From Candidatus Aenigmatarchaeota archaeon (GTDB lineage Archaea > Aenigmatarchaeota > Aenigmatarchaeia > QMZP01), in NCBI GenBank assembly GCA_039091855.1, contig JAWCLA010000002.1:1-55392 (forward strand): DNA of 55,392 nucleotides, read 5' to 3'. Shown one piece after another: positions 15,032-54,000 of the stretch. The notes beneath the pieces were generated by a model. That model was given only the letters and a program-made list of their open reading frames with translations. It was not told the origin of the DNA and did not search any database. Position 1 is the stretch's first letter. Every line of letters begins with the position of its first letter. The position numbers and the translations under genes were made by a program.

Positions 15032-15098
15032 ATAATATTATGCGTTCAAACTATTTATTACTATGAACGGTTTAAACTCGTTTTGTTTTGATTGCCAT

Positions 15099-25275: not shown

Positions 25276-25371
25276 AATTTGTTTTTGGTTGGGGGGTTTA
25301 TATTGAAGTTTAATAACAGCGTTATAATGGCAAAAGGTAAATTTATAAATATTAAAAGTTAATTATCGAAT

Positions 25372-26797: not shown

Positions 26798-26827
26798 ACA
26801 ATCACCTTTTAGAGTATGGTTTTGTAT

Positions 26828-27011: not shown

Positions 27012-27013
27012 AT

Positions 27014-28216
27014 ATGATGGTACAGGTTTCACTTAAAGACATATTTTCAAATTATGTTTCAAGAAACCCGATATTCAAAAACAAGGACATACTTTCAATA
27101 AAATTCACTCCTGATAACATTCCACACAGGAACGAGCAGATAAATCAGTTGGCCCACATACTCGCTCCTGCACTGAGAAATGAAAAACCATCAAATGTTT
27201 TTATTTATGGTAAGACTGGTGTCGGAAAGACACTTGTCACGGAAAAGGTAATAAAGGATTTGGAAGAGGCGGCTGGGCAAACAGGAAACCTTAAAATAAT
27301 CTATCTTAACTGCAAAATGAGAAAGGTAACAGACACAGAATACAGGCTTTTAGCCCAACTTATTGAGTTTTTTGGCGAAAAGGTTCCATATACAGGCCTG
27401 CCAACAAGCGAGCTTTACAACAGGTTTTTCAAAATATTGGACTCGTCACAGAAAAACCTGATTCTTGTACTTGATGAAATAGATTTCCTTGTTGACAAGA
27501 TAGGCAGCGAATTCCTTTATAATCTGACAAGAATAAACCAGAACCTCGAAAAAACAAAAGTAAGTATTGTTGGCATATCCAACAACCTTTCTTTTATGGA
27601 AATGCTTGACCCAAGGGTTAAGTCCTCGTTATCCGAGGAAGAACTTATTTTTCCTCCCTATAATGCCACGGAACTAAAAGACATTTTAACAGAAAGGGCA
27701 AAGCTTGCTTTTTATGAAAACACCATAACACAGGCGGCAATAGCAAAGTGTGCAGCACTTGCTGCACAGGAACACGGTGACGCCAGAAAGGCAATAGATA
27801 TGTTGAGGGTCGCTGGTGAGATGGCAGAAAGGCTAGGTTCGTCACAAGTAAGGGAAGAGCACGTTGACATAGCTCAAAACAAGGTTGAAACAGACAGGCA
27901 CATAGAAACGATAAAAAGCCAGCCAAAACACTCAAAAATCGTGTTGAAGGCAATATTGGACCTTTACAAAAAGGACGCAAAAGCCGTGCAAACAGGGGAT
28001 GTTTACGATCTCTATTCAAAAATATGCCAGAAGAACAGCATAAAACCACTTACACAAAGACGGGTTTCTGACTTGATATCAGAACTTGATACGCTAGGCA
28101 TAGTGAATACATTAAACATATCAAAAGGCAGATATGGAAGGACAAGAAAGATAAACGTGAACCTTTCAGGAACTCTCATAACAAAAATAAACGACCTGCT
28201 TTCTGCAGAACTTTAA
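27014..28216 (+). CDS. cdc6: Orc1/Cdc6 replication initiator
   Basis: PHRNEQINQL, Walker A GKTGVGKT, Walker B LVLDEID, GDARKAIDMLR, and a C-terminal winged helix. Confidence 0.9.
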   Translation: MMVQVSLKDIFSNYVSRNPIFKNKDILSIKFTPDNIPHRNEQINQLAHILAPALRNEKPSNVFIYGKTGVGKTLVTEKVIKDLEEAAGQTGNLKIIYLNCKMRKVTDTEYRLLAQLIEFFGEKVPYTGLPTSELYNRFFKILDSSQKNLILVLDEIDFLVDKIGSEFLYNLTRINQNLEKTKVSIVGISNNLSFMEMLDPRVKSSLSEEELIFPPYNATELKDILTERAKLAFYENTITQAAIAKCAALAAQEHGDARKAIDMLRVAGEMAERLGSSQVREEHVDIAQNKVETDRHIETIKSQPKHSKIVLKAILDLYKKDAKAVQTGDVYDLYSKICQKNSIKPLTQRRVSDLISELDTLGIVNTLNISKGRYGRTRKINVNLSGTLITKINDLLSAEL

Positions 28217-28223
28217 TGTTTTT

Positions 28224-29144
28224 ATGAACGAGGAAATAGTTAGAAGGTTTTTGAAGGAGGGCATTCTTATCTCACCTCAATCTCTTCAAAAAATCGACGA
28301 AAGTAACATAAATGAGATTCTCGAAAAGGCTAAAAGCGAAGGCGTGTTGGTTTTTTCACTACAGGAGGAAACATCAGTTGAGGTTAGGAAATTTCAGAAA
28401 AAACAAAAGCTTTCACCAAAGGATTTTGCAAAATACTATAATGCTCGCTTTGATGGTATAAAAAACATTTTGCTTAAAAAAGTTGAACATACCGTTTCTG
28501 TTTCAAATGCGAAAAGATCTGCAAGCGAATTTATAACAATAGGTATGGTAAGGGAAAAAACACCAAAAGGATTTATAATAGAGGACATAACAGGAGAGGC
28601 AGAGGTTATATCAAAAGAGGAGGATATATCACAGGACGATGTTGTAGCAATAAGAGGCATTTCGAAGGAAGGTATAATTTTTGCAAAAGAGATTATATTG
28701 CCTGACATACCATTGAGTTCTATTCGTCAAAAACCAAACATAAAATTAACATTAAGCGAAAATCAAGTTACGAAAGAGTTTAATTTGACACCAGAAGCTG
28801 TTTATTGGTCAGATAAAAAGAAAAACATCACAAACCCAGGATGGATAACTATAAAAAAAGACGACAAAACAGCAACAATCCTTGTTTACAAACCTGCTAA
28901 TGAGATAAAGGCAAAGGACATTATTTCCTTGTTAAAAAAAAGGCACCTCTACCCTTTAATTACACAGATAGAAGGTATAGAGGACAATTTTCTTATAGAA
29001 CCTGTTCCAAACCTTATATGGTTGATACAAAAGGAAAAATTTAGGGAAAATTATAAAGGAATAATGATTGTTTCTGGAGATGGGAAAGAACCAATAAAAG
29101 TCGATATGGCAAAAGACGAAATAGAATTTTGTGAGAAAATATAA
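28224..29144 (+). CDS. DNA polymerase D small-subunit (DP1)-like protein; short, with phosphoesterase motifs not evident
   Basis: The N-terminus MNEEIVRRFLKEGILISPQSLQKI resembles the DP1 N-terminal domain. The OB-fold-like segment ITIGMVREKTPKGFIIEDITGEAEVISKEE..VVAIRGISKEGIIFAKEIILPDIP follows. The remnant LLKKRHLYP....DNFLIEPVPNLI resembles the DP1 RHLAP...vPD region. I see no DxH, GNHD or GH.H metal-binding boxes. Length is 306 aa, against roughly 500-620 aa for typical DP1. Confidence 0.45.
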   Translation: MNEEIVRRFLKEGILISPQSLQKIDESNINEILEKAKSEGVLVFSLQEETSVEVRKFQKKQKLSPKDFAKYYNARFDGIKNILLKKVEHTVSVSNAKRSASEFITIGMVREKTPKGFIIEDITGEAEVISKEEDISQDDVVAIRGISKEGIIFAKEIILPDIPLSSIRQKPNIKLTLSENQVTKEFNLTPEAVYWSDKKKNITNPGWITIKKDDKTATILVYKPANEIKAKDIISLLKKRHLYPLITQIEGIEDNFLIEPVPNLIWLIQKEKFRENYKGIMIVSGDGKEPIKVDMAKDEIEFCEKI

Positions 29145-29189
29145 CATTGTTATGTTTTAAAACTTTTTATCCAAAACCAATTTAATTAA

Positions 29190-33758: not shown

Positions 33759-36425
33759 ATGGAATTTCTATGGAATGAGCTAAGCACAAAACAAGTTCTG
33801 GAAAAACTTAATTCAGATGAGAAAGGAATTTCTGAAGAGGAATCACTAATAAGACTTCAAAAATACGGCCCAAACGAAATCAGGGAAGAGAAGAAAATAA
33901 GCAAGACTGAAATTTTTATTAACCAGTTCAGAAGCACGCTTGTTATAATACTTATTGCAGCAACTATATTTTCAGCAGCCATAGGCGAAATTTTTGATGC
34001 AGCCGCAATCATAGCAATAGTTATATTAAATGCAATTTTCGGGTTTGTCCAGGAATACAAGGCAGAAAAGGCAATAGAGGCGTTGAAAAGGCTTTCTTCT
34101 CCGGAAAGCATTGTCATAAGGGATGGCAAAAAAAGGACAATACCAAGCAGAAACCTTGTCCCCGGAGACATAGTTGTCCTTGAACAGGGAACAAAGGTGC
34201 CTGCTGACATAAGGCTCATTGAGGTTTCTGAGCTTAGGATAGATGAATCACCTATCACGGGCGAGTCCTCTCCTGTTACAAAGAAAACACAACCCATAAA
34301 GGCGTCTGTGCTTGCAGAAAGAAAGAACATCGCCTGGATGGGAACAATAGTCACGTATGGAAGGGGGAAGGGTGTTGTCGTAGAAACAGGGATGAGAACT
34401 GAGATAGGAAGGATTGCAAGTTCTGTTCAAGAAGCAGGCGAAGAAGAAACCCCGCTACAAAAAAAGCTCGCTGTCTTTGGAAAGAAGCTTGGAATAATGA
34501 TTCTTGCAATATGCGGCATAGTCGCTCTCACAGGAATACTAAGGGGGAATCCCGTTGTTGACATGATAATAACAGGCATAGCGCTTGCTGTTGCGGCAAT
34601 ACCTGAAGGACTGCCTGCCGTTGTGACAATAACGCTCGCATTAGGCGTTCACAAGCTGTCAAAAAACAACGCGATAATAAGAAAGCTTCCTGCAGTGGAA
34701 GCGCTTGGTTCAACAACAGTTATATGCGCTGACAAGACAGGAACGCTAACAAAGAACGAGATGACCGTGCGCAGGATATGGTATCCTGACAAAACAGTAT
34801 CAGTGACTGGTGAAGGGTATGAACCATCAGGAAAATTCCTAGTTTCCGGTAAGGAGATCGATCCGCGAAAGGACAAAAGCATAGAGCTCATTCTTACAGC
34901 AGGCACGCTATGTAATAATGCCGAACTAGATAAGAACAACGGGAAATTAAAGATAGTTGGAGACCCAACAGAAGGCGCCTTGATAGTTGCGGCAATGAAG
35001 GCAGGGCTTTCGAATATAGAATCTTTATATCCAAGGAAGCAGGAGATACCGTTTACGTCAGAAAGAAAGATGATGACAACAATACACTCATACCATAACA
35101 AGACCGTGGTTTTTTCAAAGGGAGCGCCAGAAAGAATTCTTTCTATCTGCGATTATATCTATTGCTCAGGAAAAACAAGAAAGCTTCTTCCATCAGACAG
35201 GAAGAAAATACTCGAAACCAATAACAAGTTTACAGATGAAGCGCTCAGGGTTTTGGCTATAGCCTACAAGGAAGCAAATGCAAGGGAAAGGGAATTTGAG
35301 AAAGGGATGGTTTTTCTTGGGCTTGTTGGAATGATAGATCCACCAAGGGATGGTGTAAAGGATGACATAGCAACCTGTAAAAAAGCAGGAATAAAGGTTG
35401 TGATGATAACAGGAGACCATGTCAACACAGCGGTTGCGGTAGCAAAGGAAATAGGGATAATAGAAAAAGCAGAAGAAAAGGCACTCACAGGAGAGGAACT
35501 CGACAGGCTTTCTGACAGCCAACTTGAAGAGATTGTCGAGCAGGTAAGGGTATATGCGAGAGTAAATCCAGAACACAAGGTAAGGATAGTTGATGCCCTG
35601 AAGAAAAAGGGCCACATAATCGCAATGACAGGAGATGGCGTTAACGACGCGCCCGCACTCAAAAAAGCCGACATAGGAGTTGCAATGGGAATAAATGGCA
35701 CTGACGTGGCAAAGGAAGCCTCTGATATGGTTCTGGCAGACGACAACTTCTCAACAATAGTTGCTGCTGTAAAGGGAGGCAGGCAGATTTACGACAACAT
35801 AAAGAAGTTCATCCAATACCTACTATCCAGCAATTTAGGAGAGGTTCTTATAGTTTTCACAGCCATGCTCATAGGATTCATAGACCCGCACACAGGAAAA
35901 ACCATAATACCGCTTACAGCAATCCAGCTGCTTTGGATAAACCTTCTTACAGACGGCCTTCCTGCACTTGCACTTGGAGCCGACCCGCCATCCAAAAACA
36001 TAATGGAAAGACCGCCACGCAACCCCAAGGAAAACATACTTTCAAAGGGTATGTTTACAGATATGATAATAGTAGGAATTGTAATGCTTGTTGGAACGCT
36101 TTCGCTTTTTGCCTATAACCTTCCCTCAGGAGGACAGAAGGCAATCACAGTGGCGTTCACAACGATTGTTGTTTTTGAAATGGTGAGGGTGCAGTCCGTC
36201 CGTGCAAAATACAAGGTCGGTTTCTTTTCAAACAAAAAACTACTGCTCGCAATCTCATCAACAATACTGCTTCAAATAATAGTTATCTATTTGCCATTCC
36301 TTCAGCCCATTTTTGAAACCACACCACTTGATCTTGCTGACTGGATAGAAATAACAGCAGTCGCAAGTTCTGTAATGTTAGTTATGTTAATAAAGGACAA
36401 AATATTTAACAGGATTTATGATTAA
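33759..36425 (+). CDS. P-type cation-transporting ATPase, type II (Ca2+-ATPase-like)
   Basis: TGES, PEGLPAVVT, ICADKTGTLT, MITGD and TGDGVNDAPALKKADIGVAMG motifs. Ten predicted TM segments. Confidence 0.9.
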   Translation: MEFLWNELSTKQVLEKLNSDEKGISEEESLIRLQKYGPNEIREEKKISKTEIFINQFRSTLVIILIAATIFSAAIGEIFDAAAIIAIVILNAIFGFVQEYKAEKAIEALKRLSSPESIVIRDGKKRTIPSRNLVPGDIVVLEQGTKVPADIRLIEVSELRIDESPITGESSPVTKKTQPIKASVLAERKNIAWMGTIVTYGRGKGVVVETGMRTEIGRIASSVQEAGEEETPLQKKLAVFGKKLGIMILAICGIVALTGILRGNPVVDMIITGIALAVAAIPEGLPAVVTITLALGVHKLSKNNAIIRKLPAVEALGSTTVICADKTGTLTKNEMTVRRIWYPDKTVSVTGEGYEPSGKFLVSGKEIDPRKDKSIELILTAGTLCNNAELDKNNGKLKIVGDPTEGALIVAAMKAGLSNIESLYPRKQEIPFTSERKMMTTIHSYHNKTVVFSKGAPERILSICDYIYCSGKTRKLLPSDRKKILETNNKFTDEALRVLAIAYKEANAREREFEKGMVFLGLVGMIDPPRDGVKDDIATCKKAGIKVVMITGDHVNTAVAVAKEIGIIEKAEEKALTGEELDRLSDSQLEEIVEQVRVYARVNPEHKVRIVDALKKKGHIIAMTGDGVNDAPALKKADIGVAMGINGTDVAKEASDMVLADDNFSTIVAAVKGGRQIYDNIKKFIQYLLSSNLGEVLIVFTAMLIGFIDPHTGKTIIPLTAIQLLWINLLTDGLPALALGADPPSKNIMERPPRNPKENILSKGMFTDMIIVGIVMLVGTLSLFAYNLPSGGQKAITVAFTTIVVFEMVRVQSVRAKYKVGFFSNKKLLLAISSTILLQIIVIYLPFLQPIFETTPLDLADWIEITAVASSVMLVMLIKDKIFNRIYD

Positions 36426-36436
36426 GCAGTGCTTAA

Positions 36437-37969
36437 TCAGTGTTTAAGCGCTCCAAGCCTTTCCAACTCCTCCCCGTTTAGAAACCTCTTAAGCGCATCA
36501 GGAAGCTCAGATATTTTTATCCTTACCTGCTTCATAGAATCCCTGTCCCTGAGCGTGACATCATCATTCTTAAGCGTGTCATAATCTATCGTTATCCCTG
36601 CCGCAACTCCTATCTCGTCTATCCGACGATAGCGTCGGCCTATGCTTCCTGACTCATCATAAAAAACCTGAAACCCCTTATCCTTTAACAGATTATAAAC
36701 CTCCCTTGCCTTTTCCTGCAAGCCATCCCTATTAACCAATGGAAATATGCCTGCATCAAATGGTGATACAATCCTTGGAAACTTCATAACCATTCTTTTT
36801 TCCTTTCCGGCAAGCTCCTCATCTAAAGCAATCTCGAACAAAGCATATATGTTCCTGTCAACACCGAAGCTTAGCTCAAGAACGTGTGGGATGAATTTTT
36901 TCCCATTTATATTTACCTCTTGGCTCTCTCCAGATACCTTCTGATGTCCCAGCAAATCATGGTCAGTTCTGTAGTGAATTCCCGCAACCTCTTTAAAGCC
37001 GCCGATACTCTCCAGCTTTAATTCTACATCCCAGTGGTATTTGTTATAAAAAGCCTTCTCCTCATCTGTCAACTGCCTGAACCTGAAAGCATCCTTAGGA
37101 AGCTTTAGCAAATCCAAATAAAACTGCTGGATTTTTGCCATATAATACACATAAAATTTCGGCAAGCCAACAACCTTCACAACGTCATCTGCACTAATTT
37201 CGTCTATTTTCCCAGAATTCCTGTTCTTTACAGGAAAGACCCTTATCTTGTATTCTTTAACCTCTTCAAACCTTGGGTGCTCTTTTATAGCATCAGGATC
37301 AAAGAAAATCTGCAGCTCTGCCTGCGTAAACTCCCTCATTCTTATAAGCACGTTTCTCGGAGAAATCTCGTTCCTGTAAGCCCTTCCTATTATAGCCAAA
37401 CCCAAAGGCAGCCTTCTCCTCAGGCACTCAAACTCCTGCCTGAAATTTACATAAGCTCCCTGCGCCGTTTCGGGGCTCAAATAACCCCTCCTTGTTTCCG
37501 CTCCTGTACCAACATTCAACGGAAACATCATATTAAGGGTTCCTGTTTCCTCAAAAACACCATTGCATTTCGGGCATCTTATGTTATGCGCCTTTATTAT
37601 CTCATTCATTTTTTCCAAAGAGGCTCCTTCAAAATTTTCTTTTAGGCTTTCCTCTATTATATGGTCAGCCCTTTCGGTATTTCCACACTTTCTGCATCTT
37701 ACGACAGGGTCTACAAAAGAAGCCAAATGACCCGATGCCTTGAAAACATGCTCGGGCATTATAGTGCATACAGATATCTCATAAAAGTTGTCATCAAGAC
37801 CGAGAAAAAAAGACCTCCAAACATTTTCCCACTTCCTTTTAAGAAGGGTTCCAAGATGGGCATAGTCATAAAAGCCTGCCATTGCCCCGTGAATAAGCGA
37901 GTTCTGCCAGAAAAACCCCCTTCTTTTCGCTATGTCAAGAATTTTTTCAACCTTCGAGTCCATAATCAC
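36437..37969 (-). CDS. glyS: Glycine--tRNA ligase (archaeal/eukaryal type)
   Basis: RRGFFWQNSLIHGAMAGFYDYAHLG, the FVDPVVRCRKCG..RADH zinc-like insertion, and GRAYRNEISPRNVLIRMREFTQAE. Confidence 0.9.
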   Translation of the reverse strand: MIMDSKVEKILDIAKRRGFFWQNSLIHGAMAGFYDYAHLGTLLKRKWENVWRSFFLGLDDNFYEISVCTIMPEHVFKASGHLASFVDPVVRCRKCGNTERADHIIEESLKENFEGASLEKMNEIIKAHNIRCPKCNGVFEETGTLNMMFPLNVGTGAETRRGYLSPETAQGAYVNFRQEFECLRRRLPLGLAIIGRAYRNEISPRNVLIRMREFTQAELQIFFDPDAIKEHPRFEEVKEYKIRVFPVKNRNSGKIDEISADDVVKVVGLPKFYVYYMAKIQQFYLDLLKLPKDAFRFRQLTDEEKAFYNKYHWDVELKLESIGGFKEVAGIHYRTDHDLLGHQKVSGESQEVNINGKKFIPHVLELSFGVDRNIYALFEIALDEELAGKEKRMVMKFPRIVSPFDAGIFPLVNRDGLQEKAREVYNLLKDKGFQVFYDESGSIGRRYRRIDEIGVAAGITIDYDTLKNDDVTLRDRDSMKQVRIKISELPDALKRFLNGEELERLGALKH

Positions 37970-41399: not shown

Positions 41400-43049
41400 A
41401 TGCCAATAATATCAGTCAATGTAGAGGACCTTAAAAGAATGGTAGGAAGAAGCATACCTGACAAGGAGCTCGAATCAATAATGCCTGTGATGAAAATGAA
41501 CATAGAGGAATGGGGAGAAGAAGCAAAAATAGAAGTCACTCCTGACAGGCCAGACCTTTTCTCAGCAGAAGGTATGGCAAGACAGATAAGCAGCTGGCTA
41601 GGAATAACACCCGGGCTACAAAAATTTGATGTTTCAAAGCCAAGGGTTGAAATGAAAACAACAAAGGTTTCACTTAGACCTTTTATAACTTGTGGAATAG
41701 TAAGAAACCTGAAGATGAGCGACAGTATGGTAAAGTCAGTAATGCAGCTTCAGGAAACCCTTGACCTAACTCTAGGAAGGGACAGAAAAAAGGTTGCCAT
41801 AGGAATTCACGATGTTTCAAAGGTTGTGCCGCCATTTTTTTACAAGGAAGTTCTTCCTGAAGAAATAAGTTTTATACCTCTGAATTCAAACAAAAGGATG
41901 AACCTTAAAGAGATAATAGAAACCCACCCAAAGGGAATACAGTATTCCCATCTTGTATTAGGCGCAAAAAAATGGCCTATAATAGTTGATTCAAAAAACC
42001 AGGTTTTGTCATTTCCCCCAATAATAAATGGCGAATTGACAAGGGTCACAGAAGATACTACAGACCTTTTTATTGACATAACAGGCCCTGAGGAAAGGAC
42101 AATAAACTATTGCTTAAATATTTTGGTTACTGCCCTTGAAAAAAGGGGAGGAAAAATAGAGGCAGTAAGCATTGATGGAAAACTTAGACCAGACCTTTCA
42201 CCAAGACTGATAAAGATAGAAACAAGCAACGTGAGAAAGCTTCTTGGAATTGAAATAAGCAACAAGGAAATACAAAACCTTATTGAAAGAATGGGTTATG
42301 GTGTTACATTGAAATCAAACACAGCAGATATTCTGATACCACCTTTCAGGGCAGACATAATGCACCCTGTTGACATAACAGAAGACATAGCCATAGCATA
42401 CGGATTAAACGATTTCATACCAGAAATCCCAAAACTGCCCTTTACAGGAGGCTCGGATGAAATTGAGGATTTCTCTCAAAAAATCAGGGAGCTTATGATA
42501 GGGCTTGGATTTCAGGAGGTATTAAACTTTACGCTTACTTCAAAGGAAAAGCAGTTTGAAAAAATGTGTATAAAATATGAAGATGTTGTAGAAATCGAAA
42601 ACCCTGTTTCAAAAGAGTATTCAATATGCAGGAAGTGGCTTCTACCATCGCTTCTTGAAAACTGCCGATCCAACAAGCACAGGAGGTTTCCGCAAAGGAT
42701 TTTTGAGATTTCGGATTGTGTAATTCCTGACAGGAAATCAGAAGTGATGGCTTCAAATGTAAGGAAATTATGCTGCCTTATAACACATTCCAAGGCAAAC
42801 CTCTCTGAAATATTGTCCATACTTAATGCAATACAAGAAAATCTAAAAGCAAAATGGAATGTAACAACATCAAAACACAAAAGCTTTACAGCAGGAAGAT
42901 GCGGTTCTATTATTCTTTCTGGAAGGGAAATAGGAGTGTTTGGCGAAATACACCCAAGCGTGATAGTAAACTTCGAGCTTAACAACCCTGTTGCAGCACT
43001 TGAGATTAATGTTCAGCAGATTTTTGAGAACTTAAAGACGCTATCTTAA
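41400..43049 (+). CDS. pheT: Phenylalanine--tRNA ligase beta subunit
   Basis: MPIISVNVEDLKRMVG is an archaeal PheT N-terminus, with B3/4 and B5 domain patterns. I chose ATG 41400 over the track's TTG 41379. Confidence 0.85.
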   Translation: MPIISVNVEDLKRMVGRSIPDKELESIMPVMKMNIEEWGEEAKIEVTPDRPDLFSAEGMARQISSWLGITPGLQKFDVSKPRVEMKTTKVSLRPFITCGIVRNLKMSDSMVKSVMQLQETLDLTLGRDRKKVAIGIHDVSKVVPPFFYKEVLPEEISFIPLNSNKRMNLKEIIETHPKGIQYSHLVLGAKKWPIIVDSKNQVLSFPPIINGELTRVTEDTTDLFIDITGPEERTINYCLNILVTALEKRGGKIEAVSIDGKLRPDLSPRLIKIETSNVRKLLGIEISNKEIQNLIERMGYGVTLKSNTADILIPPFRADIMHPVDITEDIAIAYGLNDFIPEIPKLPFTGGSDEIEDFSQKIRELMIGLGFQEVLNFTLTSKEKQFEKMCIKYEDVVEIENPVSKEYSICRKWLLPSLLENCRSNKHRRFPQRIFEISDCVIPDRKSEVMASNVRKLCCLITHSKANLSEILSILNAIQENLKAKWNVTTSKHKSFTAGRCGSIILSGREIGVFGEIHPSVIVNFELNNPVAALEINVQQIFENLKTLS

Positions 43050-43802
43050 CCAACCAAAAAACCTGTGCGTTAAAGGCCTTTTAATTACATACTGTTCTCC
43101 AATAAGCGTTGCTGCTATTGCCTTTATTTGTTGCGCAGCCAAAGATCTCGGATTATAAATCACAACAGGCTGCCTGTTTGATATGGACTTACCAACATTA
43201 TGGTCTTCGTGTATTTTTCCTATTATCGGTATTCCGAGGAATTCCTCTATTCTATGAAGCGGAACCTCATATGAGGCATTTTTAATTCTGTTTACAATAA
43301 CACCTGTGTTGTCCGTTTCGAAGTCTCTCGCAACCTTTGAAAGCTTCAATGCATCTGTGAGTGCAGGCATCTCAGGATTTGTTACAGTTATAACCTCATC
43401 AGCTGCCTTTATTGCTGATTGTGCTTCCTTTCCAAGCCCCGCGGCAGTGTCTATAAGAACAAAATCGGCATCACCAGCAAGCTTATAGAAAATATCAATA
43501 AGCTTGTTAGATTGTGGAACCATAAGCTTTGAAAGAGAAATATCAGCAGGTATAACCCTAAAACCAGATTGATGATAATAAACAGCATCCTTCAATTTTG
43601 CCTTTCCACTCAAAACATCATTAAGGGTTATAGGATAAAGCGGAATTCCCAAGTGCAAGCCAAGGTTCGATGTTGTAAGATTTGCATCTATTGCAACAAC
43701 TGATTTTTTGAAATGCGAGAGAGCAGCAGCAAGATTGGAAACGATTGTTGTCTTACCTACTCCTCCCTTACCACTGGCAATAGCAATTATTCTGGTCATC
43801 AT
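43041..43802 (-). CDS. minD: MinD/ParA-family P-loop ATPase
   Basis: Deviant Walker A IASGKGGVGKTT, DANLTTSNLGLHLG, and LIDTAAG. Confidence 0.8.
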   Translation of the reverse strand: MMTRIIAIASGKGGVGKTTIVSNLAAALSHFKKSVVAIDANLTTSNLGLHLGIPLYPITLNDVLSGKAKLKDAVYYHQSGFRVIPADISLSKLMVPQSNKLIDIFYKLAGDADFVLIDTAAGLGKEAQSAIKAADEVITVTNPEMPALTDALKLSKVARDFETDNTGVIVNRIKNASYEVPLHRIEEFLGIPIIGKIHEDHNVGKSISNRQPVVIYNPRSLAAQQIKAIAATLIGEQYVIKRPLTHRFFGWLR

Positions 43803-43904: not shown

Positions 43905-44066
43905 GGGCCCGTAGCTCAGTAGGATAGAGCGGCAGCCTCCTATCAGGCCTTTTTCAAAAAAACCTGAACGGTCAAACCTTTACATTAACAAGGCAATCAG
44001 GACATACAAAAATGTCCTAAAATAGGAGGTAGCTGTAGGTCGTGGGTTCGATTCCCACCGGGCTCG
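43905..44066 (+). tRNA. tRNA-Arg (anticodon CCT) with an 88-nt intron at 37/38
   Basis: Acceptor GGGCCCG pairs with CGGGCTC (G2-U71 wobble); discriminator G44066. D arm GCTC AGTAGGATA GAGC. Anticodon stem GCAGC (43932-43936) / GCTGT (44032-44036). Loop CTCCTA (CCT at 43939-43941) plus A44031. Intron at 43943-44030. Variable region AGGTC. T arm GTGGG TTCGATT CCCAC. The intron 3' end, ATAGGAGG, can pair with the exon segment CCTCCTAT. Confidence 0.8.
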
Positions 44067-46775: not shown

Positions 46776-47758
46776 TCATTTCTGTATTTTTCCCTCTTTT
46801 CTAAATAAGAATCTAGAGAAACTTCTTTGCCAAGCCCCTTCACCATTCTATCATAATCATCATTTGTTGCCCTGTTAGCAAACATCCTGAACTTTTTGTT
46901 CTCTTTAAATTCCTTTCTCAAAAATTCACATAATCTAGAAAAATCCTTACCTTCTATTATAGACTTTGCTGCCAGACAGCCAGATATTATTGCATATCTT
47001 ATACCAAAACCCTTGGAAGCGTCCTGAAACCCACCCGCCTCGCCTATACATATGGTTTTTTTCCTGTTTGAATTAAGACTTGAATAACAAGAAAAAACAT
47101 TCAACCTTTCCGCCCCATCAGTCATTCCTGAAAGAACACGGTTTTCAAGAATTGCACTATTTAGCAATGATTTTGCCCTTTTAAAATATTCCTTTTTGAA
47201 TATCACGGAAAGAACGAAACCTTCTTTACCTGAAGGAAGAACGCAAACATATCCTCCGGGAGCGTACCTGTTGTCATAAAAAATATAAACAGCATTTTCC
47301 ATATTAAGTCCTTTAAAAACATATCCGAAGCCAAAAACATCAGCCCTCTTTGCACCACTGGCTATTACATCAGGGCTTAACTTTCCATTAAAGCCAAGAT
47401 AAACTTCTGTATTTTTGGTAAGCTGTGAAAAAAGCTGGCTTTCAATAGAATCTCTTGCAGAACCCCTTTTAAACAGGTAAAAAACAGGCTTTTCTGAATA
47501 AAGAACTGAGCAAAAATTTGGCGAAAGCCTGTAAACCTTTTTGACACTATTGCTTGGCTTTAAACTAACTCCAAAATCTCTTAACTCCTCAATTGCATCT
47601 TTTTTCAGATCGTAATTCCTGATTGCTGATATATGATAATCGTGCTTACTACCTATTGCCTTTTCCTTTTCATAAACAACATTTCTTATTCCTGCCTTGC
47701 CCAAATTTATAGCACAGGAAAGCCCTGATATGCCGCCTCCCAAAATGGTTACCGTCAT
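46772..47758 (-). CDS. FAD-dependent oxidoreductase, geranylgeranyl reductase-like
   Basis: VTILGGGISGLSCA...VYEKE is a dinucleotide-binding fold. GEAGGFQDASKGFGIRYAIISG resembles the GDAAG..P..G.GI box of the GGR family. At 328 aa it is shorter than typical GGR. Confidence 0.55.
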   Translation of the reverse strand: MTVTILGGGISGLSCAINLGKAGIRNVVYEKEKAIGSKHDYHISAIRNYDLKKDAIEELRDFGVSLKPSNSVKKVYRLSPNFCSVLYSEKPVFYLFKRGSARDSIESQLFSQLTKNTEVYLGFNGKLSPDVIASGAKRADVFGFGYVFKGLNMENAVYIFYDNRYAPGGYVCVLPSGKEGFVLSVIFKKEYFKRAKSLLNSAILENRVLSGMTDGAERLNVFSCYSSLNSNRKKTICIGEAGGFQDASKGFGIRYAIISGCLAAKSIIEGKDFSRLCEFLRKEFKENKKFRMFANRATNDDYDRMVKGLGKEVSLDSYLEKREKYRND

Positions 47759-47759
47759 A

Positions 47760-48380
47760 TTATAATTTTACCCAGTCCTTATATTTGCTGTTTTTTATAA
47801 CATCAATCTGCCTTTGGGTAAGATATTTAAGATCGAGCTGGCTTTCTGCAAATTTCTTGTACTTGTCAAAAAGCAAATCATTCGTTGAATTTATGAAGAG
47901 GCAGGAATTCCCGTTTATTGCAGCGCAGTCAATCTCAACACAGTTTATCAACATCTCATGAACAAGAGTTCCACCTCCCGCGTTTGCCCCCCTTAAAAAA
48001 TGATCAATAGGAACCTTTCCAGGATAAAACTTCAGGGAAAGCGGGTTTTTAATAACAGCGAATTTTGCAAATCCCTGATAAAATTCAAGTGTTTTGTAAT
48101 CCCCGAAACCCATCATACTTACAGTATCCATCGCAAGCCTGTACCTTTCTTCGAATTTTTTCAATCCATAACCTTCTATCATTTTACCCATTATGAAAAA
48201 TCCAGCCACCCAAGATTCAAAGTAAAGGTCATTTATCTCCTTTTTTGAAAGATCATCCCTTGTGAGCTGGTAAATGAAGCTTATTGGAACGAGGCATATA
48301 TCTTCTCCGAGAAGCGAAATTCTACCCTCCTCGAAATTAAGCTTTCTTGAAACCAATAGCTTGCTTATGAACGTATACAT
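47760..48380 (-). CDS. V4R-domain (hydrocarbon-binding-type) protein
   Basis: The C-terminus DHFLRGANAGGGTLVHEMLINCVEIDCAAINGNSCLF resembles the V4R signature (C.f..G...G ... E..C.a.G...C.F). It lies 1 nt from the downstream flavoprotein gene. Confidence 0.5.
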   Translation of the reverse strand: MYTFISKLLVSRKLNFEEGRISLLGEDICLVPISFIYQLTRDDLSKKEINDLYFESWVAGFFIMGKMIEGYGLKKFEERYRLAMDTVSMMGFGDYKTLEFYQGFAKFAVIKNPLSLKFYPGKVPIDHFLRGANAGGGTLVHEMLINCVEIDCAAINGNSCLFINSTNDLLFDKYKKFAESQLDLKYLTQRQIDVIKNSKYKDWVKL

Positions 48381-48384
48381 AAGC

Positions 48385-49074
48385 TCACTTCATAAGAACT
48401 GAGGACTCATCCTTTCTTACAACAATGCCTTTTGAAGTGAATGAAAATGGGAAGAAACCTTTTGGATGCCTTGTTCTCCTCATCTTTCTTACCTGCAACC
48501 TGTTTTCCTCTTCACCACCGACTCCGGTGAAACACAATCTTATAACACCATCTACAACAAACTCCTCAACCCCTGACCTGCTGAGTTGCTGGCTACCATC
48601 AACTATTTCAGATGTTAATAGAACAGTGCATTCAGTTTTCTTTATCGTGCTTATTAAATTGTAAAGATTTTTCCTTGTCTGCGACGGGTTTTCAATTATT
48701 AAACCAACGATCGAAATCGAGTCTATAACAAGCCTTTTAACTCCCATCCTCCTTATCTCGTCCATTATCATAGAACCCATGTTGCTCATCTGAGCAGGGT
48801 CATAATATGAAATCTTGAACATACCCTTCTTTATGAACTTGTTGAAATCCCATCCAAACTGAAGCGCGTCCTCTAGTATGTCATTTGGTTCTTCCTCAAG
48901 GGTTATATAAAGGCAGTTCTCCCCCTTCTGTAAACCGTGCCATAAGAACTGAAGACAGAATATCGTTTTTCCAGTTCCTGTTTCTCCAGATATAAGGTTA
49001 ACAGAATTAGACAAAAAACCGCCCTGAATAAGAGGATCAAGACCCGGAATACCAGATTCTACCCTCGAAATCAT
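48385..49074 (-). CDS. KaiC/RecA-superfamily ATPase (single KaiC-like domain, COG0467 type)
   Basis: SGIPGLDPLIQGGF, Walker A GETGTGKT, LVIDSIS (Walker B), and RLQVRKMRRTRH..FFPFSFTSKGIVV. Confidence 0.75.
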   Translation of the reverse strand: MISRVESGIPGLDPLIQGGFLSNSVNLISGETGTGKTIFCLQFLWHGLQKGENCLYITLEEEPNDILEDALQFGWDFNKFIKKGMFKISYYDPAQMSNMGSMIMDEIRRMGVKRLVIDSISIVGLIIENPSQTRKNLYNLISTIKKTECTVLLTSEIVDGSQQLSRSGVEEFVVDGVIRLCFTGVGGEEENRLQVRKMRRTRHPKGFFPFSFTSKGIVVRKDESSVLMK

Positions 49075-49122
49075 ACTATCACTATTTAATTTAATTTAAA
49101 CACTATCTTTAAATACTAATAT

Positions 49123-50199
49123 ATGAAAACAAATGAAACTGAAAAGATACTCGAACACTTTAAGAAAATTATAGACAGAGAAATAGAGAAAATTCTTCCA
49201 AAAAAACCAGATAAAATCTCAATGGAAAAAATATTTGGTAAGCCAAAATATTCATATGACATTTCTGCAATATTCAAAACATTGAACATACCTGTTTGGG
49301 ATTCAATATCAAGAGGCGGAAAAAGATGGAGGCCAACGCTTTTTTTGCTTATAGCCAATGCAATGGGAGGAGATATAAAAAAGCTCAAGAAATTCGCAAC
49401 AATAACAGAACTTATACATACAGGATCTATAATAGTTGATGACATTGAAGACAACGGTGAACTTAGGAGAGGAAAGCCCTGTCTTCACAAGATTTTTGGC
49501 ACGGATGTAGCGATAAACGCTGGAAACTTTTTGTATTTTTTTCCACTATACATTCTCATAAAAAACAGCAAAGATTTTGATGAAAAAACTTTGCTAAGGG
49601 TTTACGAAATTTATGCTCAGGAAATGATAAATATACATGCAGGGCAGGCGATGGACATATGGTGGCACAAGGGAAATGAAAATCCAACAGAAAGCCAGTA
49701 TATGCAAATGTGCGCCTATAAAACAGGAACTCTCGCAAGAATGGCTGCAAGAATGGCTGTTGCACTTTCAGGAGGAACAAAAGAGCAGGAAGACGTTTTG
49801 GGAGAATTTGCAGAGTCTATAGGTATAGCATTTCAGATACAGGATGACATTCTAGATATTGTTTCCTCAGGAAAGGAAAGGGAAAAATTTGGAAAATCAT
49901 TTGGAAACGATATAAAAGAAGGCAAGAGAACGCTTATGGTCATACATACACTAGAAAAGGCATCAGAAAAAGACAGGGAAAGACTTATTATGATCTTAAA
50001 CTCTCACACAAGTGATATAAATGAGATAGAAGAGGCAATATCAATAATAAAAAAATATGGTTCAGTTGATTATGCCAAAATGAAGGCAAAAGCAATAGTT
50101 ATTAGTGCATGGAAAAGAGCAGAACCGTTACTTAAAGATTCCGAAGCCAAAACTAAACTTAGGAGTTTTGCATACTTTCTTATAGAAAGAAACTTCTGA
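49123..50199 (+). CDS. idsA: Polyprenyl (geranylgeranyl) diphosphate synthase
   Basis: First DDxxD box in IHTGSIIVDDIEDNGELRRGKP. Second in FQIQDDILD. Confidence 0.85.
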   Translation: MKTNETEKILEHFKKIIDREIEKILPKKPDKISMEKIFGKPKYSYDISAIFKTLNIPVWDSISRGGKRWRPTLFLLIANAMGGDIKKLKKFATITELIHTGSIIVDDIEDNGELRRGKPCLHKIFGTDVAINAGNFLYFFPLYILIKNSKDFDEKTLLRVYEIYAQEMINIHAGQAMDIWWHKGNENPTESQYMQMCAYKTGTLARMAARMAVALSGGTKEQEDVLGEFAESIGIAFQIQDDILDIVSSGKEREKFGKSFGNDIKEGKRTLMVIHTLEKASEKDRERLIMILNSHTSDINEIEEAISIIKKYGSVDYAKMKAKAIVISAWKRAEPLLKDSEAKTKLRSFAYFLIERNF

Positions 50200-50243
50200 A
50201 AATTAGCTGCTTAATGTGATTAATCGCTACATATAACCTCTAT

Positions 50244-50403
50244 TGCTTAATGCTGCTTAACCTGCTTAAGCACTGCTTAAGCAGTGCTTAATCGCTATAT
50301 ATAGCCAACATTTAATTCCAAAAAACCTTAACCTGCTTAAGCACTGCTTAATCACCATACGTCGCCACTATAAAAAATAAAAAGCACAAAGAGACATCAA
50401 AAA
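50244..50403 (+). repeat. Direct repeat copy 1 (160 nt), rich in TGCTTAA heptamers, with a 26-bp perfect palindrome and a palindromic TATA-like box
   Basis: Identical to 51048-51209 except for an A-run length (6 versus 8 A). The palindrome TTAAGCACTGCTTAAGCAGTGCTTAA lies at 50266-50291. CTATATATAG lies at 50295-50304. Confidence 0.9.
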
Positions 50404-50435
50404 GTGCTTAAGCGGCATATATAGACGCTGTCTTT

Positions 50436-51014
50436 TTATGAAGCATTCAGTTTAAGTGCATGATAGCCCAAAGCAAGCCTTTTGATTGTATCAGGATCAA
50501 GCCTTATATAAGTCTTTCCACCTCTTGTTGAAGTTTCTATGGGTATATCATATACACGTTTTAAGTCAGAAATATACCCTCTCATACACGATTTTGATAA
50601 ACCGCATAAACTTGAAAGATAACCATAATCAATCCACTCACCTTTCATCTGCGAAAGACACCTTATAACTCTTATATGTCTTTCAGAAAGCAGCTCAACC
50701 TTTCTTTTCATATCCTCTGCTATTTTTCCTATTGAATGAGTTTTTTCAGGGTTTTTTATAGCTTTTTCTATTGCTTCTTGCAAAGGCGATATAATCTGAT
50801 TTACAACCATTTTTGAAACGGCGTCAGCAATTTTTTGGTTATCAAGATTTTTTAGCATCTCTTTTATTTCAGCACATTCATTTCTTATAACTGATTCCAA
50901 ATATTCAATCCTCCTTTGCCTTGAAGCCCTCAGCTTTTCTTCCTTTACAATTACATCAATGTCAGAAGAAATCTCCTCAAGAAGCCTTTCCATCTCTCTT
51001 AGTTCTTTAAGCAT
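50436..51014 (-). CDS. Coiled-coil protein with C-terminal winged-helix-like domain (hypothetical)
   Basis: 192-aa ORF. The N-terminal two thirds are heptad-like and charged. The C-terminus reads RVIRCLSQMKGEWIDYGYLSSLCGLSKSCMRGYISDLKRVYDIPIETSTRGGKTYIRL. It is the only gene between the two 160-nt direct repeats. Confidence 0.6.
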   Translation of the reverse strand: MLKELREMERLLEEISSDIDVIVKEEKLRASRQRRIEYLESVIRNECAEIKEMLKNLDNQKIADAVSKMVVNQIISPLQEAIEKAIKNPEKTHSIGKIAEDMKRKVELLSERHIRVIRCLSQMKGEWIDYGYLSSLCGLSKSCMRGYISDLKRVYDIPIETSTRGGKTYIRLDPDTIKRLALGYHALKLNAS

Positions 51015-51047
51015 AAAATAATTATAGTCATGGACATTTTTATATCC

Positions 51048-51209
51048 TGCTTAATGCTGCTTAACCTGCTTAAGCACTGCTTAAGCAGTGCTTAATCGCT
51101 ATATATAGCCAACATTTAATTCCAAAAAAAACCTTAACCTGCTTAAGCACTGCTTAATCACCATACGTCGCCACTATAAAAAATAAAAAGCACAAAGAGA
51201 CATCAAAAA
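51048..51209 (+). repeat. Direct repeat copy 2 (162 nt)
   Basis: Base-by-base comparison with 50244-50403 shows a single difference, the A-run length (8 versus 6). Confidence 0.9.
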
Positions 51210-51340
51210 TTTCCCAACAATTTGACAAAAAATTTAAACCATATACTTCAATCAACACCACTAATACCTATAGGAATAAATAGCAAATAATTTAAATCAG
51301 CAACATCAAACGTGTTATTAAATCCAATTAAGTGAATCGT

Positions 51341-51508
51341 ATGGGCCTAAAAGCAATAGTTAGGAAATATGTCAGGGTAATGCAAATAGCAAGAAAGCCT
51401 GGAAAGGACGAGTTCGTAAGCTCAAGCAAGATATGCGCATTGGGTATAGCTATAATAGGGTTTGTAGGATTCATCATCTTTCTCGTTTTCATATTGGCAG
51501 GAATATAA
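51341..51508 (+). CDS. secE: Protein translocase subunit SecE (Sec61 gamma)
   Basis: 55-aa ORF missing from the track because it is under 60 aa: MGLKAIVRKYVRVMQIARKPGKDEFVSSSKICALGIAIIGFVGFIIFLVFILAGI. It has the conserved KP..EF motif plus a single TM helix, and the expected position just upstream of spt5. Confidence 0.8.
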   Translation: MGLKAIVRKYVRVMQIARKPGKDEFVSSSKICALGIAIIGFVGFIIFLVFILAGI

Positions 51509-51523
51509 AATGAGAGGTGAACA

Positions 51524-52042
51524 ATGATTTATACAATAAGAACAACTTCAGGAAGGGAGGAAATAGTTATAGATATACTTACAACGAGATTAAAAAGCGA
51601 AGGCTATAACATAAAGGCAATATTTCACCCTGCTGAAATAAAGGGATACATATTTGTCGAAGGCAGCTCTGCAGACATACATAAAGCAGTTCATGGGATG
51701 ATGCATGTAAAGGGAATAATAGACAAACCTGTAAATCTTTCTGAAATCCAGCATTTTCTTGAAATAAAGAAAGACAGGATAAAGGTTGACAAAGGAGACA
51801 TAGTTGAAATAATAGGAGGCCCATTCAAGGGAGAAAGGGGAAAAATAGAAAGGATAGACAAGGTAAAGGAAGAGGTTACGATTGAGCTTCTTGATGCGTC
51901 AATACCAATACCAGTCACGATATCAACAGAATTCGTTAAGATAATCAAAAAAGAGAAAAAGGAGGAAGAGGCAAAAACAGAAGAAAAGGAGCCACAAGAA
52001 AAAAGCGTATTCGAGGAAATAAAAAAGGAGAAAGGAGAGTGA
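51524..52042 (+). CDS. spt5: Transcription elongation factor Spt5 (NusG)
   Basis: NGN domain (IYTIRTTSGREE...KGYIFVE) and KOW motif (KGDIVEIIGGPFKGERGKIERID). Carries a Lys/Glu-rich C-terminal extension. Confidence 0.9.
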   Translation: MIYTIRTTSGREEIVIDILTTRLKSEGYNIKAIFHPAEIKGYIFVEGSSADIHKAVHGMMHVKGIIDKPVNLSEIQHFLEIKKDRIKVDKGDIVEIIGGPFKGERGKIERIDKVKEEVTIELLDASIPIPVTISTEFVKIIKKEKKEEEAKTEEKEPQEKSVFEEIKKEKGE

Positions 52043-52043
52043 T

Positions 52044-52553
52044 ATGGGAAAGGTAACAGTAGAGGCGCTGGTTGACGGAGGAAAGGCAACAGCAGGACCA
52101 CCACTTGGGAACCAACTCGGGCCACTTAAGGTAAATGTTATGCAGATAGTTAAGGAAATAAACGACAAAACAAAGGAGCTGTCTGGAATGAAGGTTCCTG
52201 TAAAAATTGTTGTCAACACAGAAACAAAAAAATACGAAATTACAATAGGAACTCCTCCAATATCTGCACTTATAAAAAGAGAACTTGGCATTGAAAAGGG
52301 TTCCGGAGAGGCAGGAAAAATAAGGGCAGGGGACCTCTCAATGGAGCAGGTAAAAAGGATAGCAAAGGCAAAGTTCGGTTCTGATGAAACGGTATATATC
52401 AACCAAGTCATAGGTTCTGCAAGAAGCATGGGCGTGACTGTAGGTAAGGGAGCAATAACAGACGAGGAACGAAAGGCAGCAGAAGCAGAAAGGCAAAGGC
52501 TTAAGGCAGAGGCAGAGAAAAAGGCAGAGTCAAGGGGGAAGACAGCAAAATAA
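52044..52553 (+). CDS. rpl11: 50S ribosomal protein L11 (uL11)
   Basis: VEALVDGGKATAGPPLGNQLGPLKVNVMQIVKEINDKT. The C-terminus carries an extra charged tail (ERKAAEAERQRLKAEAEKKAE). Confidence 0.9.
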   Translation: MGKVTVEALVDGGKATAGPPLGNQLGPLKVNVMQIVKEINDKTKELSGMKVPVKIVVNTETKKYEITIGTPPISALIKRELGIEKGSGEAGKIRAGDLSMEQVKRIAKAKFGSDETVYINQVIGSARSMGVTVGKGAITDEERKAAEAERQRLKAEAEKKAESRGKTAK

Positions 52554-52620
52554 AAAACATTAATTACTTCTAAGTTGTGAATAATGATAGTTTTAAATAG
52601 TTAACATCAAAATATAGTTC

Positions 52621-53244
52621 ATGTTTCAAATAACAAGGAAAAGGCTTAACATTGCATTCTGGGCATTTTTCATACTGTCTGCGGCAGTTCTGATAGCAGG
52701 CTTCGCCGCAAACACGGTTTATATAGATGTGATACTGTCGTTTTTGCTTATAGGAGTAGGATTTCATGGCATCTTGGAGGAATTTGAGTCGAGAAGCAAC
52801 AGAAGAATGTTCAGAAAGCTGGATGATTCCCTTCAGCAGCTCTCAGAACTTATGCAGGGAAGCCATTTTTTAATAAAGAACATAAAAGAAAGCCAAGAAC
52901 TAAGGTTTCACAGGCTTGACTTGAAGTATTCAAGTCTTGAACAAAGGCTTGATAGGAGGAACAACGAATTCTCAAAGAGATTTCTCGATATTGAAAACAA
53001 GATAAAGACAATCAACAAAAAAATTGCCGGGGAGAAGCCAAAACCGATGACAAAAATTGAAAAAAGGATAGGAAAGGCAATAGCCATTCTAAGAAAGGAG
53101 GGAATGATAAATATTTCATCTTATTCGAGAAGGCTCCGAGTGAGCAGGGCCATCGCAAGAAATGACCTTAAAAAAATGACAGCAATGAACATAGTTAAGA
53201 AAAGAGGAAAGGGAAGAAAAACATATTTCGTTCTGGCCGTATAA
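52621..53244 (+). CDS. Membrane-anchored coiled-coil protein with C-terminal winged-helix-like domain (hypothetical)
   Basis: Two N-terminal TM helices, a central coiled-coil-like region, and a C-terminus KAIAILRKEGMINISSYSRRLRVSRAIARNDLKKMTAMNIVKKRGKGRKTYFVL. Lies between rpl11 and rpl1. Confidence 0.6.
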   Translation: MFQITRKRLNIAFWAFFILSAAVLIAGFAANTVYIDVILSFLLIGVGFHGILEEFESRSNRRMFRKLDDSLQQLSELMQGSHFLIKNIKESQELRFHRLDLKYSSLEQRLDRRNNEFSKRFLDIENKIKTINKKIAGEKPKPMTKIEKRIGKAIAILRKEGMINISSYSRRLRVSRAIARNDLKKMTAMNIVKKRGKGRKTYFVLAV

Positions 53245-53364
53245 AGCTTATAAAGGCAACACTTCTATAATGTAAATACTTTCAATCCGTGGCGATTTGA
53301 TAGGGAAGGTGTCTGCACACACCTTACAGCAAAAAGTGCCGCACTGCTTCGGCAGGAGGATAAG

Positions 53365-54000
53365 ATGAACGAATTTTTGGAAAGGGTAAGGGAAGCAAGG
53401 GAAAAGGCAAAACCCAGAAGGTTCAAACAAAGCTGGGATTTTTCTGTCAACCTTAAGGGGCTTGACCTGAAGAAACCTGAAAACAGGATAAATGCTGAAA
53501 TTATACTTCCAGAAGGTCTCGGAAGGGAGCTTAAAGTGGCTGTAATAGCAGACTCTCTCGTAAATGAGGCAAAAAAATCAGCCGACCTTGTTATCACAAA
53601 GGAAGAGATAGAGGAAATAGCTAAAAACAGGAAACGGCTTAAAAAAATAGCCAGAGAATATGACAGGTTTCTCGGAGAGGCCAGCCTTATGCCTACTATA
53701 GGAAAATATTTTGGGATTGTTTTGGGCCAAAGGGGAAAGATGCCAAAGCCAATACCACCAAAGGTTAAGATAGAGCCTTTCATTGAAGCGGCAAAAAAAA
53801 CTGTTAAGATATCACTAAAAGAAAGCCCTGTGGTCCATGTTTCTGTCGGGACAGAGGACATGCCTGACGAAAAAATTGTAGCCAACATGGAGGCAGTCTT
53901 GAATTTTCTCAAGGAAAAGCTGCCAAAAGGAAAGACCAACATAAAATCAGCACACATAAAGCTTACAATGGGACCTCCTGTTAAAGTAAAGATAGATTGA
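53365..54000 (+). CDS. rpl1: 50S ribosomal protein L1 (uL1)
   Basis: KPRRFKQSWDFSVNLKGLDLKKPENRI, with the GGAGG Shine-Dalgarno motif (53355-53359) 5 nt upstream of the ATG. Confidence 0.9.
   Translation: MNEFLERVREAREKAKPRRFKQSWDFSVNLKGLDLKKPENRINAEIILPEGLGRELKVAVIADSLVNEAKKSADLVITKEEIEEIAKNRKRLKKIAREYDRFLGEASLMPTIGKYFGIVLGQRGKMPKPIPPKVKIEPFIEAAKKTVKISLKESPVVHVSVGTEDMPDEKIVANMEAVLNFLKEKLPKGKTNIKSAHIKLTMGPPVKVKID

Follow-up and report, generated by a model that had tools for sequence, protein, structure and literature searches.

A gene for a predicted winged-helix protein lies between two arrays of its own presumed binding sites in an Aenigmatarchaeota archaeon

What is implied when a single gene, standing beside a conserved ribosomal operon, is bracketed by two direct repeats of about 160 bp that are almost identical? 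The question is raised by a 55,392-nt stretch of DNA (contig JAWCLA010000002.1 of assembly GCA_039091855.1; hereafter the window, to which all coordinates refer) from an Aenigmatarchaeota (DPANN) archaeon. In the window, a gene for a 192-aa protein stands between the polyprenyl synthetase gene idsA (49123-50199) and the genes for SecE (51341-51508), Spt5 (51524-52042), and L11 (52044-52553). A first-pass annotation, which had named these neighbors correctly, left four explanations open for the identity of the repeats: recent duplication, ongoing gene conversion, the att-like ends of a small integrated cassette, and assembly collapse or expansion. Our analysis favors duplication or gene conversion over the cassette and assembly options. 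The locus is chromosomal and vertically inherited, and it encodes the protein between two arrays of its own presumed sites. Comparison with relatives shows that arrays on both flanks are ancestral to the family. In the present genome, duplication or gene conversion has recently put a copy of 160 bp from the 3′ flank in the place of an older 5′ array, and this event explains why the two repeats are nearly identical.

The repeat pair and its origin

The two copies, 50244-50403 (160 bp) and 51048-51209 (162 bp), have the same sequence apart from one A-run (self-BLAST E = 9e-76), as had been claimed; the run is A6 at 50320-50325 in copy 1 and A8 at 51124-51131 in copy 2. The reported period of 804 bp holds ahead of the A-run only, the start-to-start spacing being 806 bp past it. 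A BLAST search with the unit within the window returned these two copies and no third. The gene itself is the sole credible open reading frame (ORF) between the copies, in agreement with the first-pass annotation, since the 60-aa plus-strand ORF within it is the usual shadow ORF. The features of the locus, and one cluster elsewhere, are as follows.

50206..50238: outermost module of the 3′ flank, adjoining the idsA stop codon; GCTGCTTAATGTGATTAATCGCTACATATAACC, a degenerate site plus TATA-like module with a 75% match to the repeat unit
50244..50403: repeat copy 1, 3′ of the gene; the native copy, colinear with the 3′ flank of seven relatives and identical in an independent assembly
50403..50428: innermost module of the 3′ flank, outside the repeat; AGTGCTTAAGCGGCATATATAGACGC, one site plus a TATA-like element, ending 8 nt from the stop codon
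50436..51014, minus strand: gene of the 192-aa protein; predicted long N-terminal helix, linker helix, ArsR/MarR-like winged helix-turn-helix (wHTH), and C-terminal helix
51035..51047, minus strand: the gene's own TATA box, GGATATAAAAATG on the gene strand, centered ~28 nt upstream of the ATG
51048..51209: repeat copy 2, 5′ of the gene; the derived copy, with the content of copy 1 except for the A8 run
36419..36452: the window's one motif cluster away from the locus; GATTAAGCAGTGCTTAATCAGTGTTTAAGCGC, with TTAAGCAGTGCTTAA-type sites

On the plus strand, copy 1 opens with five phased TGCTTAA heptamers (at 50244, 50254, 50263, 50274, and 50285), which in each copy follow one another in steps of 10, 9, 11, and 11 bp; a 26-bp palindrome (50266-50291) falls within this series. 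The series is followed by the TATA-like palindrome GCTATATATAGC (50294-50305), by a second pair of sites (50334-50351), and by a tail rich in A (50367-50403), which forms a T-rich, terminator-like element on the gene strand.

The repeat pair is not an assembly artifact, because both copies are present with unique flanks in an independent assembly. In the metagenome-assembled genome (MAG) GCA_038999105.1, which is 99.4-99.7% identical to the window, contig JAWABP010000052.1 corresponds to 46814-50799 and contig JAWABP010000070.1 to 50794-53975; the first holds copy 1 and the second copy 2, each between unique sequences. This excludes collapse or expansion during assembly. The A-run of copy 2 is A7 in that MAG, and with lengths of 6, 7, and 8 across assemblies the run is polymorphic. 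Two breaks would speak for an artifact: the MAG is broken midway through the gene, and position 51180, inside copy 2, is where a Logan contig from SRR27730043 begins. The latter break is what a de Bruijn assembler is expected to produce at a repeat.

Perfect direct repeats around one gene beside a conserved operon would also suit a small integrated cassette with att-like ends. We found 44 close homologues of the protein (55-63% aa identity, ~195-215 aa), all from metagenomes or MAGs, and in ten or more Aenigmatarchaeota relatives within this range of identity the gene stays between idsA and secE. The shared order is idsA, the gene, secE, spt5, L11, an ORF of 204-207 aa with transmembrane and helix-turn-helix (HTH) segments, L1, L10, and L12. 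Synteny was judged in every locus that was long enough (L002-L007, L008, L009, L012, and L013), and in all of them the position is the same, so that the insertion suggested by the first-pass annotation is not favored. No recombinase or integrase gene is present in or beside the locus, where one 192-aa ORF lies between the repeats and the neighbors are idsA and secE. No relative of the protein was detected in IMG/VR, and a phased-motif scan of that database gave 65 loci resembling unrelated tandem repeats or chance matches. An empty-site variant without the gene was not seen among the relatives, a small sample; an exact look-up with idsA returned only the known contig, and exact-protein look-ups with the wHTH protein and with Spt5 gave no matches. 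Furthermore, the repeat unit is orthologous to native 3′-flank sequence of the relatives, as described below, rather than to a junction between element and target. Given also the independent assembly with both copies and A-runs of 6, 7, and 8, a cassette or an artifact is effectively refuted already, and we hold it to be extremely improbable. A CRISPR array was considered and rejected, the core repeats being 7-mers at 8-12 bp and the "spacers" between the 22-nt modules being themselves repeated; a dispersed repeat resembling a miniature inverted-repeat transposable element was rejected as well, the unit being confined to this locus within the window.

The origin of the copies becomes apparent from the relatives, in all of which TTAAGC/GCTTAA hexamers are clustered on either side of the gene, with 5-15 upstream of it and 6-20 downstream, over a background of 0.3-0.5 per kb in the surrounding 5-13 kb. 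The arrangement of two flanking repeats is conserved in the relatives but diverged, the very result that the first-pass annotation had said would point to an old regulatory architecture rather than to a cassette: similarity between the two flanks extends over 30-59 nt at 80-88% in the relatives, versus 162 nt at 98.8% in the window. In the direction of the gene, a T-rich element comes first in the unit, and a degenerate TATA-like element and TTAAGCA sites make up the rest of its initial ~90 nt. Seven relatives have a colinear counterpart of these ~90 nt in their 3′ flank, starting 2-66 nt past the stop codon. The 5′ flanks of the relatives lack the T-rich stretch and have only an array of 5-7 TTAAGC sites. 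Because the unit is colinear with the 3′ flanks of the relatives and missing from their 5′ flanks, copy 1 is native and copy 2 derived. Besides the T-rich, terminator-like element, the copied piece includes one TATA-like element and two site clusters. On its gene-proximal side, copy 2 is joined to its flank inside array homology (…TTAAGCA|GGATATAAAA), which is not the case at its distal junction. We regard this history of duplication as much more secure than the regulatory part of the model set out below.

Such rearrangements recur at the idsA-secE locus, a second lineage, that of protein P0036, providing the other case. There, a perfect 75-bp module, composed of TTAAGCA sites and GGCTATATATAGCG, is repeated at a distance of 141 bp in one assembly (L004, 3943-4158) and is single-copy in another (L003) that encodes an identical protein. 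The modules are in the 5′ flank, the 3′ flank being only 86 bp long. The difference reflects either population-level variation in copy number or assembly collapse.

The sites and the protein

The heptamer TGCTTAA (TTAAGCA in the direction of the gene) occurs 29 times in the window versus 15.9 expected, and 22 of the 29 occurrences lie within 50208-51157. Across ten loci, 98 sites are oriented with the gene, 7 are reversed, and 56 are palindromic (GCTTAAGC); from one start to the next the distance is 8-12 bp, most often 10-11. After TTAAGC comes A at 116 of 151 sites and G at 33. The probable motif is TTAAGCR, polar and phased at about 10.5 bp. Many clusters are preceded, at a fixed distance of 4 nt, by the TATA-like palindrome GGCTATATATAGCG, such modules being 60-68 bp apart; six modules of ~22 nt with this spacing share a TATATATA core and are 73-100% alike. 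The arrays are mostly head-to-tail heptamers at helical spacing, and palindromes are secondary. The only other cluster in the window (36419-36452) spans the 11-bp gap between the convergent genes for a P-type ATPase (33759-36425) and glycyl-tRNA synthetase (36437-37969) and overlaps both gene ends.

In the relatives L006, L008, L012, L013, and L016, the last TTAAGC array of either flank is followed by a hairpin whose stems co-vary (GAAGGnnnC...GnnnCCTTC); the wHTH locus of the window lacks it. Elsewhere in the window, at 15091-15328, a 91-nt direct repeat (93% identical, period 147) inside a 249-aa ORF without a Pfam match contains a hairpin of the same type, GAAGGCGC-GAA-GCGCCTTC. The hairpin may be a lineage-wide structured element.

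The 192-aa protein belongs to an undescribed family that is narrowly distributed among DPANN archaea. No family in Pfam, NCBIfam, or PHROGs matched it (RE_MjaI appeared in Pfam below threshold only), a PDB profile search retrieved no HTH protein, and the sequence models of the ArsR/SmtB and MarR families (HTH_5, HTH_20, MarR, and HTH_metalloreg) gave no match above threshold. An exhaustive profile search of 1.84 billion representative proteins yielded just 10 hits. An AlphaFold2 model has a mean predicted local distance difference test (pLDDT) score of 75, with 83-88 for the wHTH part (residues 111-172); its elements are a long helix (2-87), a short helix, helices 111-121, 130-137, and 141-153, strands 159-164 and 167-172, and a helix at 174-191. 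The top Foldseek matches of the C-terminal half are SmtB, CzrA, HlyU, NolR, and MarR (E about 1e-3; target-normalized template modeling score, 0.55-0.66). The model therefore supports a winged-helix fold with flanking helices, as in the ArsR/SmtB-MarR repressors. H113, C119, C137, and C143 are invariant in the close family, C137 and C143 bracketing the HTH turn. With three invariant cysteines and a histidine in and beside the HTH, the protein may bind under the control of a redox or metal signal. In the same gene cluster, the ORF between the L11 and L1 genes (52621-53244, 207 aa; 204-207 aa at the same position in all relatives) combines a coiled-coil-like middle with a C-terminal, DeoR/HTH_11-like HTH, preceded by an N-terminal membrane segment. 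This second coiled-coil and HTH ORF of the window shows no relationship to the 192-aa protein.

The gene and the sites also occur together in distant homologues. P0045, P0046, and P0048 (profile E, 1e-18 to 1e-20) are found in unrelated, largely unannotated contexts, and a Pfam search of the neighbors in L020 and L090 was almost empty. In all three, TTAAGC arrays lie directly 3′ of the gene: P0045 (L020) has more than 10 sites with an 11-bp period, P0048 (L023) has four sites in a 53-bp gap between convergent genes, and P0046 (L090) has TTAAGCGC repeated 3.5 times immediately past the stop codon. These three and the close family have in common the recognition-helix motif SC(I/L/M)RGY. P0051, with SRVRAY in this position, lacks a TTAAGC array and has CGAGCAGTGCTCG, CGAGCGCTCG, and TGCTCA at 11 bp instead, and P0050, with DGVRGY, has TAATCAATCA repeats in place of a TTAAGC array. 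This co-variation of motif and recognition helix, read by eye, is suggestive, and it is the best evidence that the protein reads the arrays. The distant homologues show that the conserved core of the system is the gene plus a 3′ array.

Promoter signals were sought around the gene. Its TATA box has the position and spacing of those of other genes in the window and is kept as CTATAAAAGCGTGCT in the relatives; with the center ~28 nt before the ATG, the mRNA would be leaderless or have a very short leader. The gene-proximal TGCTTAA of copy 2 (51048-51054) directly abuts this box, at the place where the TFB-recognition element (BRE) would lie. Right after the stop codon, on the gene strand, comes the conserved T-rich element, a plausible archaeal terminator. 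On the strand of idsA, no T-run appears across the 3′ flank until the gene is reached. A scan for sigma-70 promoters and intrinsic terminators gave 3 promoter-like sites versus 6.3 expected and no terminators, and is uninformative for an archaeon. Rfam at gathering thresholds detected only a tRNA in the whole window; over 50150-51350, with E up to 1, only sub-threshold chance matches (mir-15 and twister-P3) appeared.

What the arrays may do

Several known systems resemble parts of the locus. R1 parC, with its two sets of five 11-bp iterons, is operator and centromere at once, and the iterons are cooperatively bound by the product of the adjacent gene, which represses itself (PMC2241845). ParR-parC and the present locus have in common two arrays of about five head-to-tail repeats at ~11 bp that flank a promoter. 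ParR, however, is a ribbon-helix-helix protein, and parC is located wholly upstream of an operon that also encodes the ParM motor, whereas the present locus is chromosomal, has an array on either side of the gene, and lacks a linked NTPase. TubR and AspA (pNOB8, Sulfolobus) are small winged-helix proteins that coat arrays or centromeres beside their own genes in a superhelical nucleoprotein filament (PMC9178275). Their fold class agrees with that predicted for the 192-aa protein by Foldseek, but no sequence similarity is detectable, and the operons that encode them are those of plasmids or phages and include TubZ or ParA/ParB partners, of which none is present here. The long N-terminal helix is not known from TubR and AspA. 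In SopB-sopC and P1 ParB-parS, the array is directly 3′ of the gene for the binding protein (PMC9178275), as in the distant homologues; sopC, on the other hand, consists of 43-bp repeats bound by a ParB-family protein that has a ParA partner, while the protein here is from a different family and has no partner. The best structural matches remain the ArsR/SmtB and MarR repressors, including redox-switched members such as RexT and the archaeal SurR, whose thiol or metal switches the conserved cysteines and histidine resemble (PMC8960804, PMC12162507). Repressors of these types are typically autoregulatory. They differ from the 192-aa protein, which has an extra N-terminal helical half of about 100 residues, and their one or two palindromic operators differ from the long polar heptamer arrays seen here.

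We consider it fairly probable that the gene encodes a lineage-specific, site-specific DNA-binding protein that assembles head-to-tail on the arrays around its own gene and controls that gene, autoregulation being the most likely role of the arrays. Protein units would sit head-to-tail on one face of the DNA, with the long helix joining them to one another. Since the last site of the 5′ array sits where the BRE should be, its occupancy would block TFB and TBP and repress the gene, giving negative autoregulation in this genome. Occupied by the same protein, the 3′ array could bridge or loop to the 5′ array, or it could keep read-through transcription of idsA from entering the gene in the antisense direction. 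The invariant cysteines and histidine may let a redox or metal signal switch binding.

A number of observations weigh against this model. We infer recognition of the DNA by the protein from co-occurrence only, and the motif assignments in L091 and L092 were made by eye and are only modestly enriched. The first-pass annotation had proposed that the protein reads the palindromes inside the repeats; a role of the protein as reader is well supported by co-occurrence and by the co-variation with the recognition helix, and the relevant sites are mainly head-to-tail heptamers instead of palindromes. Some sites do form palindromes, as operators of the ArsR/MarR type would, such as the 26-bp one in copy 1, yet head-to-tail sites prevail, 98 versus 7. 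Of the coiled coil and winged-helix C terminus that had been predicted, the winged helix is borne out by AlphaFold2 and Foldseek. The coiled coil through which units might associate is only weakly indicated: the pLDDT falls to 55-65 for residues 51-100, and in a heptad test of helix 2-87 the observed score was reached by 58 of 500 shuffles, which is not significant. In most relatives the 5′ array ends 30-60 bp upstream of the TATA box, often with a hairpin between, and a site that abuts the gene's own TATA box is found in the window genome only. The distant homologues have arrays only 3′ of the gene, which is not a promoter-operator position, and the extra cluster of the window, between convergent genes, is not in an operator position either. 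Finally, 13-20 sites exceed what autoregulation needs.

The main rival is a cis-acting site of the centromere type, in which the arrays would organize the chromosome, the protein would be an adaptor of the centromere-binding type, and autoregulation would be a by-product. The layout of a partition cassette, a direct-repeat array beside the gene of its presumed binder, is indeed present at the locus. The gene with an array just 3′ of it is kept across the distant homologues whatever the neighbors; many head-to-tail repeats at ~11 bp recall the two sets of five iterons of R1 parC (PMC2241845); winged-helix TubR forms a filament on tubC repeats, and sopC comes after sopAB (PMC9178275). Away from the locus, clusters of the motif are very rare, and an Orc1/Cdc6 gene with an ORB-like (origin recognition box) upstream region is 23 kb away in the window and 2.2 kb from the homologue in L090. 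Neither in the window nor in any relative, however, is a ParA-, ParM-, or TubZ-type partner NTPase found in or beside the locus, the neighbors being idsA and secE; the nearest candidate, a CbiA/ParA/MinD-type gene (43041-43802), is 7 kb off and unlinked. The coupling of sites to TATA-like elements and the placement of the 5′ array beside the promoter fit control of transcription better, and we judge the centromere-type site unlikely, though it deserves to be kept in view. A broader form of the idea is that a self-contained module of protein and polar cis-array, shared by divergent DPANN lineages and with no recognizable SegAB or ParABS at the site, is a new chromosomal cis-element (centromere, topological boundary, or roadblock) instead of a promoter operator; this we think rather unlikely.

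Arrays or clusters between convergent genes, as at 50200-50435, at 36419-36452, and in L023, would be equally at home in a roadblock or insulator, in which the bound arrays stop RNA polymerase arriving from the convergent idsA and their polarity makes the block directional. The strict polarity of the sites suits this, as does the absence of oligo-T toward the gene in the direction of idsA, the gene strand having a strong and conserved T-rich element past its own stop codon. It leaves unexplained the 5′ arrays, the TATA-like elements inside the arrays, and the restriction of sites to one or two loci per ~55 kb. We know of no description of termination by a protein roadblock in archaea, and this too counts against a reading that we find quite improbable. 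It could also be supposed that the TATA-like plus TTAAGCA modules, 60-68 bp apart, are promoters of short noncoding or antisense RNAs: the TATATATA core of the six ~22-nt modules resembles the TATA boxes of the genome, T-runs come after some modules, and the relatives have the co-varying hairpin after the last array on both flanks. But no Rfam family is matched (the best match reaches 22.8 bits versus a gathering score of 57.3), the hairpin is missing at the locus of the window, the distant homologue in L023 has sites and no TATA-like element, and what is conserved is heptamers and phasing, not a foldable unit. Such RNAs are highly doubtful.

Neighboring features and wider meaning

Two ATPase genes in the vicinity of the locus have no demonstrable link to the arrays. 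One is the CbiA/ParA/MinD-type gene mentioned above; the other encodes a KaiC-like ATPase (48385-49074), lies past idsA, two genes from the wHTH gene, and is kept in all relatives. The possibility that the locus is a replication origin was rejected: it is not adjacent to Orc1/Cdc6 (27014-28216), whose own upstream region holds the ORB-like TTTCCTGTGGAAA, and GC skew tracks the gene strand and gives no origin signal at the locus. The region upstream of Orc1/Cdc6 (26798-27013) is itself probably the replication origin. It contains a perfect 29-bp palindrome, AATTAAATATAACAgTGTTATATTTAATT (26933-26961), and the mini-ORB-like TTTCCTGTGGAAA at about 26898-26910. The core ATAACAsTGTTAT, with one mismatch, appears again at 25313-25325 and 29141-29153 (3 matches versus 0.07 expected); the core is also seen in L020-L022 and beside a Cdc6 gene in L090. 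At 43905-44066, Rfam reports a 162-nt tRNA (52.5 bits), missed by ARAGORN and presumably with a long archaeal intron; the window also has a gene for a tRNA-intron endonuclease (5287-5883).

For the reading of microbial genomes, the locus means that arrays of binding sites flanking a gene can homogenize or duplicate and so give rise to long, perfect repeats that mimic the ends of mobile elements. Were the arrays a cis-acting chromosomal site and not operators, they would represent a new kind of archaeal chromosome element. Among the reduced genomes of DPANN archaea, where almost no regulators have been characterized experimentally, the locus offers a new protein family together with a probable motif, its geometry, and a series of co-varying homologues, and the family can be tested by electrophoretic mobility shift assay or DNA affinity purification sequencing without culturing the organism.

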